Source of the DNA: a virus
Lineage: Duplodnaviria; Heunggongvirae; Uroviricota; Caudoviricetes
Virus record (IMG/VR): IMGVR_UViG_2724679538_000008
Span: 1-22,421 of that record
Strand: one strand, 5' to 3'
DNA: 22,421 nt
The translations under genes and the position numbers were made by a program. The notes under the pieces are model-generated. The model had not been told where the DNA came from. It worked only from the letters and a program-made list of their open reading frames with translations, and did no database searches. This document shows, piece after piece, positions 4,836 to 19,336 of the stretch; positions within the stretch are counted from its first letter, which is position 1, and the number at the start of each line of letters is the position of its first letter.

Positions 4836-5132
4836 TTATACCTCTGAATCAATATCAACCTGGTGGTGAGCAATGGTTTCAACCATGTACCGGATGTGTT
4901 CTGCCATGCGCTCCTGAAACTCAACATCGTCATCAAACGCACGGGTAATGGCTTTTTTGCTGGCCCCGTGGCGTTGCAAATGATCGATGCATAGCGATTC
5001 AAACAGGTGCTGGGGCAGGCCTTTTTCCATGTCGTCTGCCAGTTCTGCCTCTTTCTCTTCATGGGCGATCTGCTGGTAGTGACGCGCCCAGCTCTGAGCC
5101 TCAAGACGATCCTGAATGTAATAAGCGTTCAT
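4836..5132 (-). CDS. gam: Gam, RecBCD inhibitor (short GamS-length form only)
   Basis: 98-aa ORF '[60 protein letters not shown]...VDIDSEV' matching lambda Gam from its internal Met. The in-frame upstream region is closed by a stop about 19 codons upstream. Confidence 0.93.
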
Positions 5133-5207
5133 GGCTGAACTCCTGAAAATGGCTGTGAAAATATCGCCCGCGAAATGCCAGGCTGATTAGGTAAACAGGA
5201 AAGGGGA

Positions 5208-5618
5208 TTAGTGATTCAGACCGTTACCGCGCCCGTCGAGAAAAACTTCCACGAGCAAGTCACGGGTATAAGTGCGCTCGATGCCGCGATGCAGATAAAG
5301 CCGTCCGCGTAAATTAGCTGATGCGGTCCAGGTACCATCTTTGTGTTTGACCAGCATTCCTGGCATGACCGCACCGCGATTAACGGTCTGCGTTCCGTAA
5401 TGTTGATGAACCATAAAAACTCCTGCCCGTAAGCTGGGCTGCTGAACATATAAAGACTTCTGCGCGTATTCAGGCGGTGGATGGCCGCCGGTTGTCATAA
5501 CTAAGTCGCCTCGTTGAAGCAACTGAGGTATGAAGTGTTGAGTTGATTTCAGCTGGTCACACCGACGTTCACGCGTCCGCTTCACCCCTCGCACTCCCCG
5601 GAGCCTGCTGAAATTCAA
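5208..5618 (-). CDS. Hypothetical protein in the N / early-left position (start uncertain)
   Basis: 136-aa frame if the TTG at 5618 is used, giving an arginine-rich N-terminus 'RLRGVRGVKRTRERR'. The first ATG is at 5498 (97 aa, 'MTTGGHPPPEY...'). Lies between the candidate OL/pL region and gam. No family recognised. Confidence 0.4.
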   Translation of the reverse strand: MNFSRLRGVRGVKRTRERRCDQLKSTQHFIPQLLQRGDLVMTTGGHPPPEYAQKSLYVQQPSLRAGVFMVHQHYGTQTVNRGAVMPGMLVKHKDGTWTASANLRGRLYLHRGIERTYTRDLLVEVFLDGRGNGLNH

Positions 5619-5702
5619 GCTGCGGATCTAAGCGGTCATCGCAACGGTGAATCAGGTGGTTGCCGTATCGTTGTGTTGTTGCGATGAACTCATTTAAAAC
5701 TA

Positions 5703-5766
5703 TAGTTGTTTTATCGTCAACAACAAAAGTTGTTTTATTGGTTTTTTTAGATATAACTGGTTGTAT
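5703..5766. promoter_or_regulatory. Candidate OL/pL operator region (GTTGTT/AACAAC half-sites)
   Basis: 'tAGTTGTTttatcgtcAACAACaaaAGTTGTTttattGGTTttt...ctGGTTGTAttt' has repeated half-sites identical to those of the palindrome in the cI-cro intergenic region. Sits at the lambda OL position between the N-position ORF and the rex-position gene. Confidence 0.45.
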
Positions 5767-5894
5767 TTAGGATGGATTTATTTTGTGACTTGAATCGCAT
5801 AGCGATAACTGAAGGGAGGTTGTGGTGGTTTTTTGAACGGTTTGTGTGATGAGGGGAGGCAAAAGAAAACCCGGCACGGTGGCCGGGGTGGGAT

Positions 5895-6743
5895 TTATGC
5901 TGATTTTTTAGTATGTCTACTATTATATTTTTCTAGCAGATCTGCTAACTGATCTTCTTTTGGTGGTCTAGGGAGATTGTTTCTTACATTGCTTCGCTTC
6001 TGAGCTTCAGCTATTCGATCACCAAAGTATCTTTTGAAGATCTCGTATTCTGCACAGTTTTCCGGATCTACATCATAAAATGATAACTTGCCGTAAATTG
6101 CACAAAACCAGTCAGCGCATTGAATTGTTTGGTATAGTTTACTGTCTACTTGTACAGGGGCTTCAAGCAATTGATACTTCTCTTCTTGATGCATTTCATA
6201 GATTGCTTCTTTAACAATCTCGCTTCTCATTTCATGATCGTCCATGAAAATCAAGAATTGAGCATCTTGATTTTTGAACTCATTGTCTAGCCGTTTTATT
6301 ACTTCTTTAAAGCTTGATTTATAAGTTCGTTGAGGGTTATGAGATGCAACACCAATGCGTTTAGCTTCTCCTACGTAGAAAAGAAAGCCGCCATAACGAG
6401 TAATAGTGTTAATTATTCTGTTTGTGCTTCTTGTTAAGTATTTTTTGTACTGTGTTAAATTTTTTACAGAATACTGTTTGGAACCTTTTTTCTCCCAACA
6501 TGACAACTGGAAACGCTCGCCCTTAGCTTGTGCCTTTCTTCTGGCTTCTGGTATGTCATAAGAACCGAACAGTTGTTGCTTATGCTTGAAGAAGAAATGA
6601 GAAAAATCTCTTACTCTATTGGCTGGTAGGACGAATCCACCAAGCCCAAAAACTGGATGTGTATTATGCTGAGGATGTTTCTTGGAAATGTACGGGCCAT
6701 CATGACCAAACTCATCCAAGTAAACTATGAATATATTTGACAT
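5895..6743 (-). CDS. DUF3800-like protein in the rexAB position (downstream of cI, same strand)
   Basis: ORF track 5895..6758; the likely start is the second ATG (6743), preceded by 'GGGGCAAGG', giving 'MSNIFIVYLDEFGHDG...'. The N-terminal '[IV]Y[IL]DE.G' type start is what I recall for DUF3800. AT-rich relative to the flanking lambda genes. Confidence 0.5.
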   Translation of the reverse strand: MSNIFIVYLDEFGHDGPYISKKHPQHNTHPVFGLGGFVLPANRVRDFSHFFFKHKQQLFGSYDIPEARRKAQAKGERFQLSCWEKKGSKQYSVKNLTQYKKYLTRSTNRIINTITRYGGFLFYVGEAKRIGVASHNPQRTYKSSFKEVIKRLDNEFKNQDAQFLIFMDDHEMRSEIVKEAIYEMHQEEKYQLLEAPVQVDSKLYQTIQCADWFCAIYGKLSFYDVDPENCAEYEIFKRYFGDRIAEAQKRSNVRNNLPRPPKEDQLADLLEKYNSRHTKKSA

Positions 6744-6916
6744 TACCTTGCCCCACATACACGGAAGCCCGACTTAAAAAAGCCGGGCCCCGGAATCAGC
6801 AGCAGAAGAAGGTTAAATCTCCCGCCTCTTGTGTTTAAGTATCAGAGAATGTCATCAAAAAGTCAATATGTGTTATGGGAAAATATTACTCAAATACCTC
6901 ATCAGAACACGGCTGA

Positions 6917-7606
6917 TTATCCGTGTTTCCTATACGTCTGCGGCATACTGCCAATAACCTTCCCGAAGATAAACACTCGGTTCATCTCGTCTTTCTCGAT
7001 CGGGTCCCACGGTGAGTAGCTCTTGTTATCAGAGATGACCAGCAGCTTATCCTTCATCATTTGCAGGCGCTTTACATGGGCTGTGTCGTCGTACAGAAAC
7101 GCATAGATACCATCACCGTCGAAAGATTTAACAGTGATATCAACGAACAGCAGATCACCTGGTTCGATCGTTCCTGACATGCTGTCACCACGCACGTTAA
7201 TGATGCGGATATTTTCCGCCTTCCTACCATCGAACATGTGACGAGCATCGTCAAATGAGTACTCAACCGAGCGTAGAACTTCTACAAACTCACGGTTGAT
7301 GACTCCCGGCCCAGCACTGACTTCTATATCAAGAACGTCAATCTTGAAGTATTTGGAATGGCTGACAGTTGATTGTATTGGTTGCACTGTACTGTCTGAC
7401 ATATTTCCAACGCCAGAAGATAACCATTCTGCGCGCACACCCAAAGCGTTCGCGATCTCCACGATTTTAGTTGTTTGGTTAGCTTTCCCTGTTTCGATTT
7501 TCTGAATAGCAGCCTGGCTAACCCCAACCAAATCCCCAAGTGCCTTTTGTGTAAGGCCTCGCGCTAATCTGGCTTCTTTAAGTCTTTCTGAGAGTGTTGT
7601 TTTCAT
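6917..7606 (-). CDS. cI: CI-like prophage repressor (HTH_XRE N-domain + S24/LexA-like peptidase C-domain)
   Basis: 'MKTTLSERLKEARLARGLTQKALGDLVGVSQAAIQKIETGK' HTH followed by a C-terminal region with '...VRGDSMSGTIEPGDLLFVD...' (S24 Ser/Lys autocleavage-type domain). ORF track starts at 7672; the Met at 7606 gives the canonical N-terminus. Divergent from the cro-like gene. Confidence 0.85.
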   Translation of the reverse strand: MKTTLSERLKEARLARGLTQKALGDLVGVSQAAIQKIETGKANQTTKIVEIANALGVRAEWLSSGVGNMSDSTVQPIQSTVSHSKYFKIDVLDIEVSAGPGVINREFVEVLRSVEYSFDDARHMFDGRKAENIRIINVRGDSMSGTIEPGDLLFVDITVKSFDGDGIYAFLYDDTAHVKRLQMMKDKLLVISDNKSYSPWDPIEKDEMNRVFIFGKVIGSMPQTYRKHG

Positions 7607-7647
7607 AGACCAAATGTACAACCAAGGTTTTATTCCATCAAACGAAA

Positions 7648-7672
7648 ATGGTTGTTGACTAAAAACAACCAT
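7648..7672. promoter_or_regulatory. OR-type operator palindrome within the cI-cro divergent promoter region
   Basis: Perfect inverted repeat ATGGTTGTT-gactaaa-AACAACCAT. It overlaps a TTGACT -35-like hexamer (7652-7657) facing cro. A further GGTTGTT lies at 7704-7710, next to the cro RBS. Confidence 0.55.
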
Positions 7673-7710
7673 AGTTTTAATCTTGATTCAGATTAACCAC
7701 GGAGGTTGTT

Positions 7711-7941
7711 ATGAACCCAGCAATCAAAACAGCGATCAATATAGTTGGTTCACAAAAGAAACTGGGCGATGCCTGCGAAGTTTCACAGCAGGCCGTCTAT
7801 AAGTGGCTTCACAACAAAGCAAAGGTATCCCCTGAACATGTCGGCAGCATTGTTACGGCTACTGGTGGAGTTGTGAAGGCATACCAGATTCGCCCGGATC
7901 TTCCGAAGTTGTTTCCACACACCGAAAAGAACGCAGCTTAA
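7711..7941 (+). CDS. cro: Cro-like HTH regulator (YdaS/Cro family)
   Basis: 76-aa protein with HTH 'KKLGDACEVSQQAVYKWLHNKAKVS'. SD 'GGAGG' upstream. Divergent from cI across the operator region. Confidence 0.7.
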   Translation: MNPAIKTAINIVGSQKKLGDACEVSQQAVYKWLHNKAKVSPEHVGSIVTATGGVVKAYQIRPDLPKLFPHTEKNAA

Positions 7942-7953
7942 ATTTCCATTTCA

Positions 7954-7999
7954 CGCTCTTTAACAATAAGCAATCAACTTAACAGACTGATTAACAGTC
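7954..7999 (+). promoter_or_regulatory. nutR-like site: boxA followed by a boxB-like hairpin
   Basis: 'CGCTCTTTAACAA' (7954-7966) matches the boxA consensus. It is followed 18 nt later by GACTG-attaa-CAGTC (7985-7999), a 5-bp stem with a 5-nt loop like lambda boxB. Located just downstream of cro, as nutR is in lambda. Confidence 0.5.
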
Positions 8000-8022
8000 A
8001 ATTCAAACTAAAGGAATCAATT

Positions 8023-8562
8023 ATGCAACCAATTACATACCAACAGACTAGCGGATTTACCCCGACTGCGGTGATAAATCGTTCTCAAACAAAACAGGCG
8101 CCAGGCCACGAAAAAATCCGTGATGCCGTTCGCGCCTGGTCGGCTGCAGATAATCAGGATGTTGTTGCCGCACTCATTGTGAATGAGTATCGGGAGCAGG
8201 GCGGCGGCACCATCGATTTCCCTGATGATGTCAGCCGTGCACGCCAGAAGCTGTTCCGCTTCCTCGATAACAAATTCGATTCTGAAAAATACCGAAATAA
8301 CGTGCGTGAACTGACCCCGGCAATTCTGGCGGTTCTACCGCTGGAATATCGCGGCCACCTGGTTGAGCAGGATAGCTTCATGGCTCGGCTGGCTGAAATG
8401 GAAAAGGAACTCAGTGAGGCAAAACAGGCTGTCATTCTCAACGCACCACGCCACCAGAAACTGAAGGAGATGAGTGAAGGCATTGTGTCGATGTTTCGTG
8501 TGGACCCAGATTTGGCTGGTCCACTGATGGCGATGGTCACCACCATGCTGGGGGCAATATGA
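8023..8562 (+). CDS. CII-position regulator, YdaT-like
   Basis: 179-aa ORF immediately after cro and the nutR-like site. Segments 'VVAALIVNEYREQGGGTIDF' and 'LTPAILAVLPLEYRGHL' resemble the Rac-prophage YdaT family as I recall it. Stop overlaps the downstream start (ATGA). Confidence 0.5.
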   Translation: MQPITYQQTSGFTPTAVINRSQTKQAPGHEKIRDAVRAWSAADNQDVVAALIVNEYREQGGGTIDFPDDVSRARQKLFRFLDNKFDSEKYRNNVRELTPAILAVLPLEYRGHLVEQDSFMARLAEMEKELSEAKQAVILNAPRHQKLKEMSEGIVSMFRVDPDLAGPLMAMVTTMLGAI

Positions 8563-8648
8563 CAGGTTCGGAAATGGCGAAAGCCGGTCTGCGGGAACAG
8601 AGCCGACTTTCAGGTGCAAATCGTAACGCACTCATTGCGGAAGGAATT

Positions 8649-10879: not shown

Positions 10880-10896
10880 AGTAATTCAGTGGCAAC

Positions 10897-10922
10897 AATA
10901 GCACTCATTTGTGAGTGCTATT
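10897..10922. terminator. Perfect 11-bp-stem hairpin between convergent genes (putative bidirectional terminator)
   Basis: AATAGCACTCA-tttg-TGAGTGCTATT, placed between the stops of the 84-aa (+) and 472-aa (-) ORFs. Flanks are A/T-rich on both sides. Confidence 0.5.
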
Positions 10923-10930
10923 GAAATTTA

Positions 10931-12349
10931 TTAGAAAATAATGTTTGCTATATCCGAGATAGCATTTAAAGAACCTCTGTGGTCACTTCCTGTTTTAGGT
11001 AAAATATAGGAATATCGAGGGTCTTCATTATATGTTAACTTCCAGTGTTTTCCATCGCTTGACGCACTGAAACCTAAGTCCTTTAAATTTCTTTGTGTTG
11101 CGCTATCCATGCTTCTGTAACCTGTTAAAGTCCTTTTAAGTAATTGGCGGCGACTCTCGGTTTCTTTATTGTATTCATTATTGGCAATTAGGGATGATAA
11201 GATATGGTAGCTTCTACCAAATTCATTTTTATTTTTTATGGCAGTTTTTAGTGCGTCAATAATTATATTTTTGATTTCTCCATCAAAAAAGTCAGTCTCT
11301 TCACCAGCATTAAGCACAATGCTTCCTTGGGCTGAAGCTTGTGATTGAAGAGTGCGTACTCTGTGCTCTAAAGAGGAGATCTTATGCTTAAGATCTTCTA
11401 TTTGGTCATCTTTCGCAACATTATCGGCTTCGTAAAGCGCCATCAGTTCGCGTGTGTATTCTCCTCTTTCTTTGAGTGAGTTAATAGAGTCTTTCGTTTT
11501 TCTGGTTTGTATCTCACTCCATCCACTATCTGAGACAGGAGCCATTGTAGTCGTAGCTCTTACAACATCATCAAATAACTCATCTTCAAATTCTTTTGCG
11601 GTTTTCTCACCACGGCGATAAAAACTGATATTTTGACCCCGTGGCCAATAGATACCAACAGCACCAGCATAGGCATTTTTAGCATTTGTCTCATTTTTTA
11701 GCTTAATAGAAAATAGTCTATTGCTAGGCTCAATTAATACATGTGCTAATCCGCATACCTTTCTTGCAAGGCGTTCTGGGATGATATTGTGAGCATGTTC
11801 ATTAAAAAAATACTTGGAGCTAACGTATATTATTGGTAGTCTGTTGTCAGTTTCACCATTTATAACTTTAGCTGCTATATTTAAATGTTCATCAGTATCA
11901 TCTAAGGAATGAGGTTCGACTGACACCTTGAAAATATCATCAAGACCACCAGAAAATTTATCAATCAATCTCATAACAACTAATGGTTTCTTAGGTTGCG
12001 GGGCTAGATAAGCTGCATCTTGGCTTACAACGCTAGATTCCACCTGAATCCACATGGTATCAGTTTTGAGATTTTTATTAATTGAAATATCTGTTACCCA
12101 TTTGTGTGGCTCAGATATTTTCGAATACCTAAAACAGCCTAAACTAGTATCTTTGTTTTTATAAGTTATTATATCAATTCTTTCATTTTTAGACTCTATG
12201 AAGTACTCCTCGCTTTTATAATCACATACTAATTGTGCTGGAATAAAAGTTGTATGTGGTGAGTCGTTTACCCAAGAAAAACATTCATTAAAGATCTCAG
12301 CTAGAGATGTGGAGTTTGAAACATAAAAACCAGTTGAGAAATATTTCAT
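10931..12349 (-). CDS. Large orphan protein (472 aa), AT-rich, no recognisable domain
   Basis: Long uninterrupted ORF on the strand opposite to the early-right operon. Visibly lower GC than the flanking lambda genes. Central predicted coiled-coil ('ELMALYEADNVAKDDQIEDLKHKISSLEHRVRTLQSQ'). No Walker A or other motif I can name. Confidence 0.7.
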   Translation of the reverse strand: MKYFSTGFYVSNSTSLAEIFNECFSWVNDSPHTTFIPAQLVCDYKSEEYFIESKNERIDIITYKNKDTSLGCFRYSKISEPHKWVTDISINKNLKTDTMWIQVESSVVSQDAAYLAPQPKKPLVVMRLIDKFSGGLDDIFKVSVEPHSLDDTDEHLNIAAKVINGETDNRLPIIYVSSKYFFNEHAHNIIPERLARKVCGLAHVLIEPSNRLFSIKLKNETNAKNAYAGAVGIYWPRGQNISFYRRGEKTAKEFEDELFDDVVRATTTMAPVSDSGWSEIQTRKTKDSINSLKERGEYTRELMALYEADNVAKDDQIEDLKHKISSLEHRVRTLQSQASAQGSIVLNAGEETDFFDGEIKNIIIDALKTAIKNKNEFGRSYHILSSLIANNEYNKETESRRQLLKRTLTGYRSMDSATQRNLKDLGFSASSDGKHWKLTYNEDPRYSYILPKTGSDHRGSLNAISDIANIIF

Positions 12350-12463
12350 GAAATTTCCTTATTAAAAATGAGATTAATCTCATTGGCTATGATAATTGTT
12401 ACCCTCCTTTGGATCTAGTGTTCATTTGACATAAGAACCTATTGATTCATCATAATCAACTCG

Positions 12464-12588: not shown

Positions 12589-13008
12589 TACATTCGGTGT
12601 TTTACTTCGACAGCCAGAATTGGGAGTCTCTATTCGTCTGGCGGCTAAAGGTGATATGGAAATCGTTATGTTTTGGCCTGAGGTAGTTGTAACTGTTGTA
12701 GCAGCTATGGCTGTGATCATCATGGTGTCCATTTACTGGGGTTGACGACATGATTTATCCGGCGCTATATTCTGTGCGTTGCCGCAAAATCGGCACACGG
12801 GATTGGCGTCCCGGGATACTACTCAACGCATACCGCGTTAAGCGGTTTTTTTGTGCGCTAAGCACGGCTATGCCCAAATTATGGTGGGCTGTGTGAGGGC
12901 TTCTTCGGAAGCGCCGGGTTTGAGTAGCCGGTTACGCCAACCTTACACAGTTCACCACCAGTCGATTGGCGTCGTTGGTGGTGATGGTTAACCTGATGAG
13001 GTGATACT

Positions 13009-13617
13009 ATGACTACTCAATTAGCATTCCACAAAACGACGTTTACCCCGATTTGCCACAATAACAGAATTTGGCTTACTGCCACTGAAGTTGGTTTAGC
13101 ACTGGAATATGCGGACGATAAAGCAGTTCAGCGTATTTACTCTCGGCACTCAGATGAATTCACAGATATGATGACAAGGGTGGTCAAAGTGACCACCCCT
13201 CGTGGAATGCAGGAGTCTCGAGTATTTAGCCTTCGCGGAGCCCATTTGATCGCCATGTTTGCTCGTACTCCTGTGGCCAAAGAATTCCGCCGCTGGGTTC
13301 TGGATATTCTCGATCGAGAAGTTCAACAATCCCCAATCACAAAACAATTCACTGATAACGAACTTTGCACACTCGCCTGGTTATGGCGAGCAAGTGATAC
13401 GATGTTAACCGCCTGCCAGAACGTTACGCCCCTTCTTCAGGTCGCAGAGCATCGCGAAGCAGGTAGATTCACTTCAATCGAACAAGAATATCCTCGGATA
13501 CTCAACAGGGCGCGAGAAATCCTTGCCAGAGAAACGGCGCATGTAAAATTCCAACCGTGGCAGGATGATAAGTGGAGTCGTGTGTTACCATATTTCCGTC
13601 AGAATCTGTTGCAATAA
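13009..13617 (+). CDS. Bro-N domain antirepressor-like protein
   Basis: 202-aa ORF; the N-terminal half 'IWLTATEVGLALEYADDKAVQRIYSRHSDEF...ESRVFSLRGAHLIAMFARTPVAKEFRRWVLDILDRE' follows the Bro-N pattern (W..A.DV...L.Y ... E..V.SL.G...I..AR.P.AK.FR.WV). Has its own upstream promoter-like element. Confidence 0.6.
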   Translation: MTTQLAFHKTTFTPICHNNRIWLTATEVGLALEYADDKAVQRIYSRHSDEFTDMMTRVVKVTTPRGMQESRVFSLRGAHLIAMFARTPVAKEFRRWVLDILDREVQQSPITKQFTDNELCTLAWLWRASDTMLTACQNVTPLLQVAEHREAGRFTSIEQEYPRILNRAREILARETAHVKFQPWQDDKWSRVLPYFRQNLLQ

Positions 13618-14362: not shown

Positions 14363-14396
14363 TTTTCAGCACATTTGATTTCCAATAATCAACCAG

Positions 14397-18604: not shown

Positions 18605-19336
18605 ATGCCATACATATGTTCTATCATTTTGGTGTTGAACTCGTTTGATGCCCGAATTGGTAAAGAAGATATTTTGTTTAAAAAAGGAAGTGCTGTTCTC
18701 ATTGATTACAATTTAAAAGATTTTTTTTCATCAAATATAGATCATGTAATGATCGTAGATGTTGAAGAGAAAACAGTTAATGATTTCTTTAAAAGCAACA
18801 CACTCTCACCTTTTTCTGTAAGAAGGTTTTATCCGGCATACTTGATGGTGGAATGTGAAGATTTTTCATTGTTAAAGAACTTGATTGCATGCTTGAATTG
18901 TGATGGCAGAACTGTGGATTTTGTTAGAAATCAAATATCACTTGCATGTCTTGCTATCTTATCTTCAGAGAAAATAGTGCAAAGTTTTTTATTTGGATGT
19001 CTTAATAGTTTAGGAAGTAAAGTTAAGGCTATTATTCACACGGATATATCTGCAGCATGGAGACTTTGTGATATATCTTCAAGACTGTATCTGAGTGAAA
19101 GTCTGTTAAAAAGAAAATTAAAGCACGAAGGCTTATCATTTAGTAAGTTAATTCTTGAAGAGCGAATGGTGATGGCGGAAAGGTTATTAAGCTACAATTT
19201 ATATTCTGTTGGAAAAGTTGCTAAGATATGCGGTTATGAAAATACGTCATATTTTGTAAGTGTTTTCAGAAGATATTTTGGTGTTCCTCCCCATCAATAT
19301 TCATCAAGATTTTTTTTAGAAAAAGACATGATGTAA
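18605..19336 (+). CDS. AraC-family transcriptional regulator (AppY/GadX-like architecture)
   Basis: C-terminal AraC HTH 'WRLCDISSRLYLSESLLKRKLKHEGLSFSKLILEERMVMAERLLSYNLYSVGKVAKICGYENTSYFVSVFRRYFGVPPHQY'. Very AT-rich gene. 'AGGTGGA' lies upstream of the ATG at 18605. Confidence 0.8.
   Translation: MPYICSIILVLNSFDARIGKEDILFKKGSAVLIDYNLKDFFSSNIDHVMIVDVEEKTVNDFFKSNTLSPFSVRRFYPAYLMVECEDFSLLKNLIACLNCDGRTVDFVRNQISLACLAILSSEKIVQSFLFGCLNSLGSKVKAIIHTDISAAWRLCDISSRLYLSESLLKRKLKHEGLSFSKLILEERMVMAERLLSYNLYSVGKVAKICGYENTSYFVSVFRRYFGVPPHQYSSRFFLEKDMM

Follow-up and report, generated by a model that had tools for sequence, protein, structure and literature searches.

A probable orphan nutR boxA at the cro-ydaT junction of a common Escherichia coli lambdoid prophage family

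The early right operon of a lambda-like (lambdoid) Escherichia coli prophage carries, between cro and a YdaT-type regulator gene, a consensus boxA that is best read as an orphan nutR half-site left by modular recombination, and not as a working lambda-style nut site. Judged by its sequence and setting, the motif is genuine and non-chance, and it is related to the nutR boxA by position and descent. The hairpin downstream of it appears to be an incidental product of a 12-nt indel in a minority sublineage and not a boxB. Because boxB, an N gene and nutL are all absent, the site does not qualify as an N-utilisation site. The fuller proposal, in which this orphan boxA would still recruit the host Nus complex without N at the cro-ydaT junction, is given roughly even chances. 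The DNA analysed, called the window throughout, is the whole 22,421-nucleotide stretch of IMG/VR record IMGVR_UViG_2724679538_000008.

The window represents the early region of the prophage. Over a 390-nt cro-ydaT probe it shows 100% identity to E. coli strain 2016C-3878, and its immunity region is ~96% identical to those of phages PhiR34_1, PhiR26_1 and IdasGreatGrand, all members of the DLP12/4A7-like group; the Cro protein of PhiR26_1 is identical to that of the window. Rightward, the gene order is cI, putative pR, cro, an 81-nt gap, the YdaT-type gene, O, P and ren, and leftward it is cI, a DUF3800 moron, pL, a leader of ~190 nt, kil, gam, bet and exo. The following features are central to the analysis.

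5499-5720, minus strand: putative pL (TTGACG at 5720-5715, TTAAAT at 5697-5692) and its leader of ~190 nt to kil
6917-7606, minus strand: cI
7655-7683, plus strand: putative pR, TTGACT-17 nt-TAATCT, within an operator palindrome, assigned by reading the sequence and near-identical to a copy at pL
7711-7941, plus strand: cro, a YdaS-type HTH gene and the first gene of the pR operon (PF15943, phrog_35)
7942-8022, plus strand: cro-ydaT intergenic gap, 81 nt here and 69 nt in the majority allele
7954-7966, plus strand: boxA CGCTCTTTAACAA, an exact match to the rrn-type consensus and a predicted NusB/NusE-binding motif
7985-7999, plus strand: AU-rich hairpin GACUG-AUUAA-CAGUC, present in the sequence
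7986-7997 (equivalently 7979-7990), plus strand: 12-nt indel ACTGATTAACAG, seen by comparison with a relative (L001) and 120 related loci
8023-8562, plus strand: YdaT-type 'CII-like' regulator gene, the first gene after boxA (PF06254, phrog_163)

Homologues of the window cro are present in PA28, SH2026Stx1, HK639, UPF_BP1 and other phages. The YdaT-type gene is preceded by a Shine-Dalgarno GGA at 8013-8015, and its product gives only a distant match to the CP-933P YdaT structure 8bt1. The gap between the two genes is G-poor (A33 C17 G7 T24) and unstructured, with a whole-gap fold (84 nt as folded) at z = -1.69. On the leftward side, the pL leader is 96-99% conserved in phages of different immunity type. 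The DUF3800 (phrog_26069) moron at 5895-6743 on the minus strand occupies the position of lambda rexAB, between cI and pL, and has a strong terminator of its own (5887-5870); in relatives the cargo of this slot is different, consisting of an ASCH-domain gene and a 357-aa gene, or of nothing.

The boxA lies 12 nt 3' of the cro stop codon (TAA) and 56 nt 5' of the YdaT-type start codon, on the sense strand at about +265 of the pR transcript as counted from the putative promoter. An earlier note on this DNA had placed the motif at 7954-7966, and the placement holds: CGCTCTTTAACAA is the sole exact copy in the window, and none of 100 dinucleotide-preserving shuffles gives a match. Its core GCTCTTTAACA, at 7955-7965 on the plus strand, agrees at 11 of 11 positions with GYTCTTTAANA, the functional BoxA consensus that Baniulyte et al. 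2017 (PMC5725501) drew from suhB and rrn. This perfect match, together with a nutR-like position as in lambda and PA28, bears out the consensus assignment made in the earlier note. The position equals that of boxA in lambda nutR and in 17 loci with homologous cro. The window's 11-mer ends 47 nt short of the ydaT Shine-Dalgarno GGA; for the majority allele the figure is 35 nt. Point mutations occur in 2 of ~137 copies of boxA, a rate like that of the flanks, and with all copies at least 95% identical the family is too young for purifying selection on boxA to show. A second perfect GYTCTTTAANA match, GTTCTTTAACA, lies at 18870-18880 on the minus strand, antisense within a plus-strand phrog_1450 gene, bringing the perfect matches in the window to 2 against 0.11 expected; since no minus-strand transcript is obvious there, this second match is probably due to chance.

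The hairpin begins 18 nt after the boxA 13-mer, or 19 nt after the 11-mer. Its location, sequence and 18-nt spacing are as the earlier note had described them, but it does not rise above chance: when the 56 nt from boxA to the next start codon are shuffled, an equally good hairpin, taken as a perfect stem of at least 5 bp with a loop of 3-8 nt, arises in 24% of cases. Its free energy is -4.2 kcal/mol, compared with -6.4 to -7.9 for the boxB elements of lambda, P22 and PA28. The 12-nt indel duplicates TTAACAG and supplies the hairpin with its 3' arm; the majority allele reads ...ACTTAACAGTCAATTC... at this site. A search with the 3' end of cro gave 120 related loci, namely phage IdasGreatGrand and 119 viral contigs. 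The hairpin-less sequence ACTTAACAGTCAATTC is present in 116 of them, and the remaining 4 have the additional ACTGATTAACAG. A second sample has the insertion in 3 of 17 same-cro loci; in one carrier, L189, a boxA mutation occurs together with a stem mutation. Across complete E. coli genomes, a 50-nt insertion probe matches 44 genomes, and a 38-nt probe for the hairpin-less junction matches 1466 genomes in 1662 places. The hairpin is thus found in ~3% of copies and missing from the ~97% that are otherwise near-identical. Linkage of the indel to two nearby SNPs (GGAGTC -> GGAATC and CCACTT -> CCAATT) indicates that it marks a single sublineage. Conservation of the hairpin in related phages therefore fails, an outcome that the earlier note had itself named as speaking against its reading.

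Insight into the ancestry of the motif comes from the sequences that follow cro in related phages, surveyed in annotated phages and in a census of cro homologues across 26 bacterial species with an alignment of four Cro sequences as query. In lambda, the cro TAA is followed by 7 nt, CGCTCTTA, 9 nt and boxB GCCCTGAAAAAGGGC. PA28 has cro TAA, 7 nt, CGCTCTTTAACA, 9 nt and the phage-21-type boxB UCACCUCUAACAGGGUGA, along with an annotated N-like gene, and in SH2026Stx1 cro is followed by CGCTCTTTATCAA and a P22-type boxB, with an N gene in the phage. Altogether 17 loci from the annotated phages and the census have boxA and then a GC-rich hairpin, in most cases beginning 6-10 nt past the boxA; in these loci the 42-nt segment that follows boxA has a GC content of 45-60% and a folding energy of -6.3 to -15.4 kcal/mol. 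The corresponding 42 nt of the window family, in its majority allele, have 31% GC and a folding energy of -1.5 kcal/mol. Set beside known nut sites, a comparison that the earlier note had proposed, the window's boxA keeps the position seen in lambda and PA28, but its hairpin is unlike the 17 real GC-rich boxBs. The element suggested there as a boxB is a lineage-specific, AU-rich and weak product of an indel, 19 nt from the 11-mer where a spacing of mostly 6-10 nt is the rule, and that part of the reading is not sustained.

Gene content separates the two kinds of locus as well. Where the next gene is callable, the boxA-plus-boxB loci mostly have a lambda-type cII there, and tblastn detects N homologues in 9 of these 17 loci versus 0 of 12 loci without boxA. 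In the boxA-less loci the next gene is YdaT-type or other, and two further loci carry putR. Loci with a YdaT-type next gene (L213, L217, HK639 and 4A7) are without boxA, and within the annotated phages and the 26-species census the combination of boxA and ydaT without boxB is confined to the window family. UPF_BP1 and APC_JM3.2 carry the HK022 putR in the slot directly after the homologous cro. HK639, Klebsiella phage ST101-KPC2phi6.1 and 4A7 have no boxA and a gap of only 29-39 nt; 4A7 yields no BoxA consensus match. A separate feature of boxA-less relatives is a 5-6 bp GC-rich hairpin of -9 to -14 kcal/mol with the cro stop codon in its loop, present in 4A7, HK639 and ST101-KPC2phi6.1 and in prophages of Kosakonia, Klebsiella and Enterobacter (10015-10035 in L002, 4215-4232 in L204, 4215-4245 in L205, and at the cro stop in L211-L213). 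Its stem is kept despite differing loop sequences and stop codons.

Of the systems that the site resembles, the lambdoid nutR of lambda, PA28 and SH2026Stx1 shares with it a pR-transcribed boxA at a distance of 7-12 nt from the cro stop, and these phages have a cro homologous to the window's at 59-66% amino-acid identity; the PA28 boxA is identical to that of the window over 12 nt, CGCTCTTTAACA. The window differs from all of them in having no boxB, N gene or nutL and in a next gene of YdaT-type rather than lambda-cII-type. In addition, the post-boxA RNA of the nutR phages is 45-60% GC with a stable hairpin, whereas that of the window is ~30% GC and unstructured. The boxA elements of rrn leaders and spacers resemble it as high-affinity NusB/NusE-binding types, and 13 consecutive nucleotides, GCTCTTTAACAAT, are identical to the boxA region of the E. 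coli rrn leader. Unlike rrn, the window has no flanking rrn-type boxB or boxC, and the RNA downstream is translated mRNA. The HK022 putR fills the same slot after a homologous cro in UPF_BP1 and APC_JM3.2, but the window has no put-like sequence or structure. [quoted passage not shown] The boxA of the window is classed as a new instance of stand-alone, or orphan, BoxA.

A nut site consists of boxA and a boxB that binds the arginine-rich motif of N, with nutL as its leftward counterpart, and N is normally the first gene after pL. In the window, pL is followed by the leader of ~190 nt and then by kil, in the slot normally held by N. PHROGs and Pfam place no member of the N family among the 20 early ORFs from int to the lysis genes, and every early ORF is assigned to a non-N PHROG or Pfam family. 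Searches by tblastn with lambda N, P22 gp24, PA28 N and SH2026 N return only chance-level matches (E >= 0.25), and the annotations of relatives give no N, so that the earlier note's remark that no canonical N gene is obvious proves accurate for PHROGs, Pfam and tblastn with these four proteins. N proteins diverge fast. This, together with the 8 of 17 boxA-plus-boxB loci that have no tblastn hit, means that absence by homology is not absolute proof.

The cognate site on the leftward transcript, which the earlier note had expected, does not appear: the minus strand from 5000 to 5720 contains no boxA at up to 3 mismatches to the 13-mer or up to 1 mismatch to the 11-mer. One nutL candidate in the pL leader, CGCTTAGA with a 9-bp hairpin, was rejected as too distant, with 5 of 8 boxA matches. 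Antitermination by put RNA was assessed with a covariance model (R1) built from HK022 putL, HK022 putR and HK639 putL, which recovers putL and putR at 65-104 bits in UPF_BP1 and APC_JM3.2, two phages outside its training set. In the window the model reaches no more than 12.7 bits (E = 0.085), at a place within the O gene, and the pL leader yields no put RNA. Rfam searches, run with gathering thresholds and, for 5000-8600, with E <= 10, give no family of any kind near the site, nut and put included; elsewhere in the window they find only C4 and isrK. N-type processive antitermination of the early right operon, which the earlier note had taken the site to imply, is on these grounds not supported, given no N homologue, nutL or put and the 63 of 80 sibling loci that have no boxA.

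The kil reading frame is open for 40 codons upstream of its ATG (5618-5499, minus strand) and contains an arginine-rich stretch, RLRGVRGVKRTRERR. An extended kil could start at a GTG at 5585, preceded at 8 nt by GGGGAG; three variants have ATG in place of this GTG, and a frequent AAG/AAA polymorphism at 5580 within the extension is synonymous. As a candidate N, the extension was rejected: it is never called in a collection of 15 billion proteins, has no homologue outside the family, and is broken in one variant by a 5-nt insertion.

The distribution of these elements among sibling phages points to a mosaic origin. Among the 80 closest ydaT loci, 63 have a different cro, a 30-nt gap and no boxA beside a ydaT protein that is 97-99% identical, and the ydaT-O-P genes of siblings without boxA are likewise 97-99% identical to those of the window. 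A single pL leader serves both immunity types. Since the operon is shared with siblings that do without boxA, any Nus-dependent effect of boxA must be dispensable. The immunity module has its mosaic boundaries at ~5685, about the pL transcription start, and at ~8023, the first codon of ydaT. Phages with another cI and cro still show 96-99% identity to the window in the pL leader and in ydaT-O-P. The family as a whole is present in ~1500 of 5426 complete E. coli genomes (~28%). A parent with the arrangement cro-boxA-boxB was sought in three ways. In E. coli genomes the window cro stands only beside ydaT among the records listed, two pattern scans of IMG/VR returned only unrelated chance matches, and an exact-pattern scan of the GTDB genome collection returned nothing. 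With no parent phage found, the recombination history is deduced from how the arrangements are distributed, no breakpoint having been traced. Under the proposed history, a 'cI-cro-boxA' immunity module from a lineage of the N/nut type would have joined a 'ydaT-O-P' replication module whose lineage of origin had no nut site, the junction falling between boxA and boxB.

Between pR and Q stand two terminators, one with a 12-bp stem at 10896-10923 and that of isrK. Transcripts from pR would have to get past 10896-10923 on their way to Q; by homology and motif searches, this is a prophage family without a recognisable early antitermination device despite terminators between pR and Q. The 12-bp-stem terminator lies directly after ren and is bidirectional, and a convergent gene of 472 aa, with no function assigned, follows on its far side (10931-12349, minus strand). 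Further downstream, isrK (58.7 bits) and the C4 antisense RNA (74.8 bits) stand in tandem at 12780-12962, directly upstream of an Ant/Bro-N anti-repressor gene (13009-13617). Taken together, isrK, C4 and Ant are recognisable by sequence as an antisense-controlled anti-repressor module of the P1/P7 and Gifsy kind inside the nin region. The same part of the window contains two perfect copies of TTGATTN6AATCAA (12442-12459 and 14375-14392), the operator of CP-933P YdaT (PMC9986795), the first ahead of isrK/C4/ant and the second ahead of ninB. Both coincide with calls of a sigma-70-like promoter, TTGATT-17-CATAAT, and an estimate from 12 specified bases in 22 kb gives ~0.001 perfect matches by chance. 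The window YdaT is only distantly related to that of CP-933P.

What the boxA does now is open to several readings. [quoted passage not shown] The motif is of the high-affinity rrn/suhB type and not of the weaker lambda type, which makes it probable that the pR transcript still recruits the Nus complex. The RNA probably still binds NusB/NusE, as suggested by the consensus type, the 47 nt to the Shine-Dalgarno, the G-poor gap and the parallel with lambda rutA. Some modest effect without N is plausible at the cro-ydaT junction: the stand-alone BoxA could modulate events at this untranslated, G-poor junction, either by damping the loading of Rho, as in rrn operons, or by repressing translation of the YdaT-type gene, as at suhB. 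It would not confer terminator-proof, operon-long antitermination of the N kind. Precedent exists in the suhB leader: a lone consensus BoxA there brings in SuhB together with Nus factors, with translational repression of the gene behind it and ensuing Rho-dependent termination, and the repression is still seen when BoxA and Shine-Dalgarno are as much as 100 nt apart (PMC5725501). In both alleles of the window family the corresponding distance falls inside that 100-nt range. The supplementary list of Baniulyte et al. has no ydaT entry and no relevant phage entry (PMC5725501).

A serious rival to an active stand-alone BoxA, though on balance a somewhat unlikely one, is that the motif is an inert relic, a recent nutR leftover with no measurable effect on expression and at most transient binding of NusB/NusE. 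Siblings with the same downstream operon and no boxA at all fit this reading, as do the near-background rate of boxA mutants, which gives no sign of selection, and the restriction of boxA plus ydaT to one young lineage that does not extend to other species in the 26-species census. Against it, two genes, suhB and a Citrobacter parE-like gene, show that an 11/11 BoxA in an mRNA leader can be enough for Nus-factor recruitment and regulation (PMC5725501), and the lineage is very successful, reaching ~1500 of 5426 complete E. coli genomes. Quite improbable is a gap devoted mainly to Rho loading (a rut site, tR1-like) or to control at the DNA level (a PRE-like promoter, YdaT operators), with boxA secondary. 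The gap is indeed G-poor and unstructured (C17 versus G7 in 81 nt), the annotated lambda rutA overlaps boxA, CP-933P YdaT footprints ~95 bp over a ydaS/ydaT junction with a PRE-like promoter (PMC9986795, PMC8630535), a leftward promoter-like site lies at 7877-7849, and TTAACAATAAGCAATCAA (7960-7977) matches the YdaT operator with 3 mismatches. At 70% A+T and 21% C, however, the gap is poor for a rut site, and neither function explains an exact 13-mer boxA. The operator match is within chance (33 found versus 22 expected at up to 3 mismatches), and the window YdaT is distant from the CP-933P protein; a YdaT operator or PRE at boxA, having only this 3-mismatch match, was rejected.

Least probable, and hardly to be expected on the evidence, is a true nutR, with boxA and hairpin together drawing in an N-like antiterminator that has escaped recognition and would let pR transcription run through terminators. 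In its favour are the correct position of boxA and the terminators at 10896-10923 and isrK between pR and Q, and the arginine-rich RLRGVRGVKRTRERR, in frame upstream of kil just after pL with its GTG start and GGGGAG, could be imagined as the missing factor. The hairpin it depends on is absent from ~97% of copies, weak and AU-rich, and is mutated together with boxA in L189, so that the majority allele offers no boxB to a factor encoded by the kil extension. That extended ORF is in turn uncalled by gene finders, confined to the family and frameshifted in one variant, and there is neither a nutL nor an N homologue. The orphan nutR boxA with residual Nus recruitment is the reading carried forward here. 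Its widest form, in which an N-less and put-less prophage family found in ~28% of complete E. coli genomes loads Nus factors and SuhB onto pR transcription complexes through a lone boxA, borrowing the rRNA and suhB pathway with no antiterminator of its own, and thereby resists Rho at the cro-ydaT junction or tunes synthesis of YdaT, the CII analogue, and hence the lysis-lysogeny decision, is offered tentatively, as a rather unlikely extension.

For the biology of lambdoid phages, the site cautions that a boxA plus any nearby hairpin is insufficient to call a nut site. Across phages the slot after cro is variously taken by nutR, putR, a stop-codon hairpin or an orphan boxA. If the boxA is a relic, it would illustrate lambdoid mosaicism with a recombination breakpoint inside a nut site, and the interest of the case stays modest unless Nus-dependent activity appears. 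If the boxA is active, it would provide a phage case of N-independent BoxA regulation, hitherto described for rrn, suhB and one toxin gene, and would be relevant to a prophage that over a quarter of sequenced E. coli harbour.
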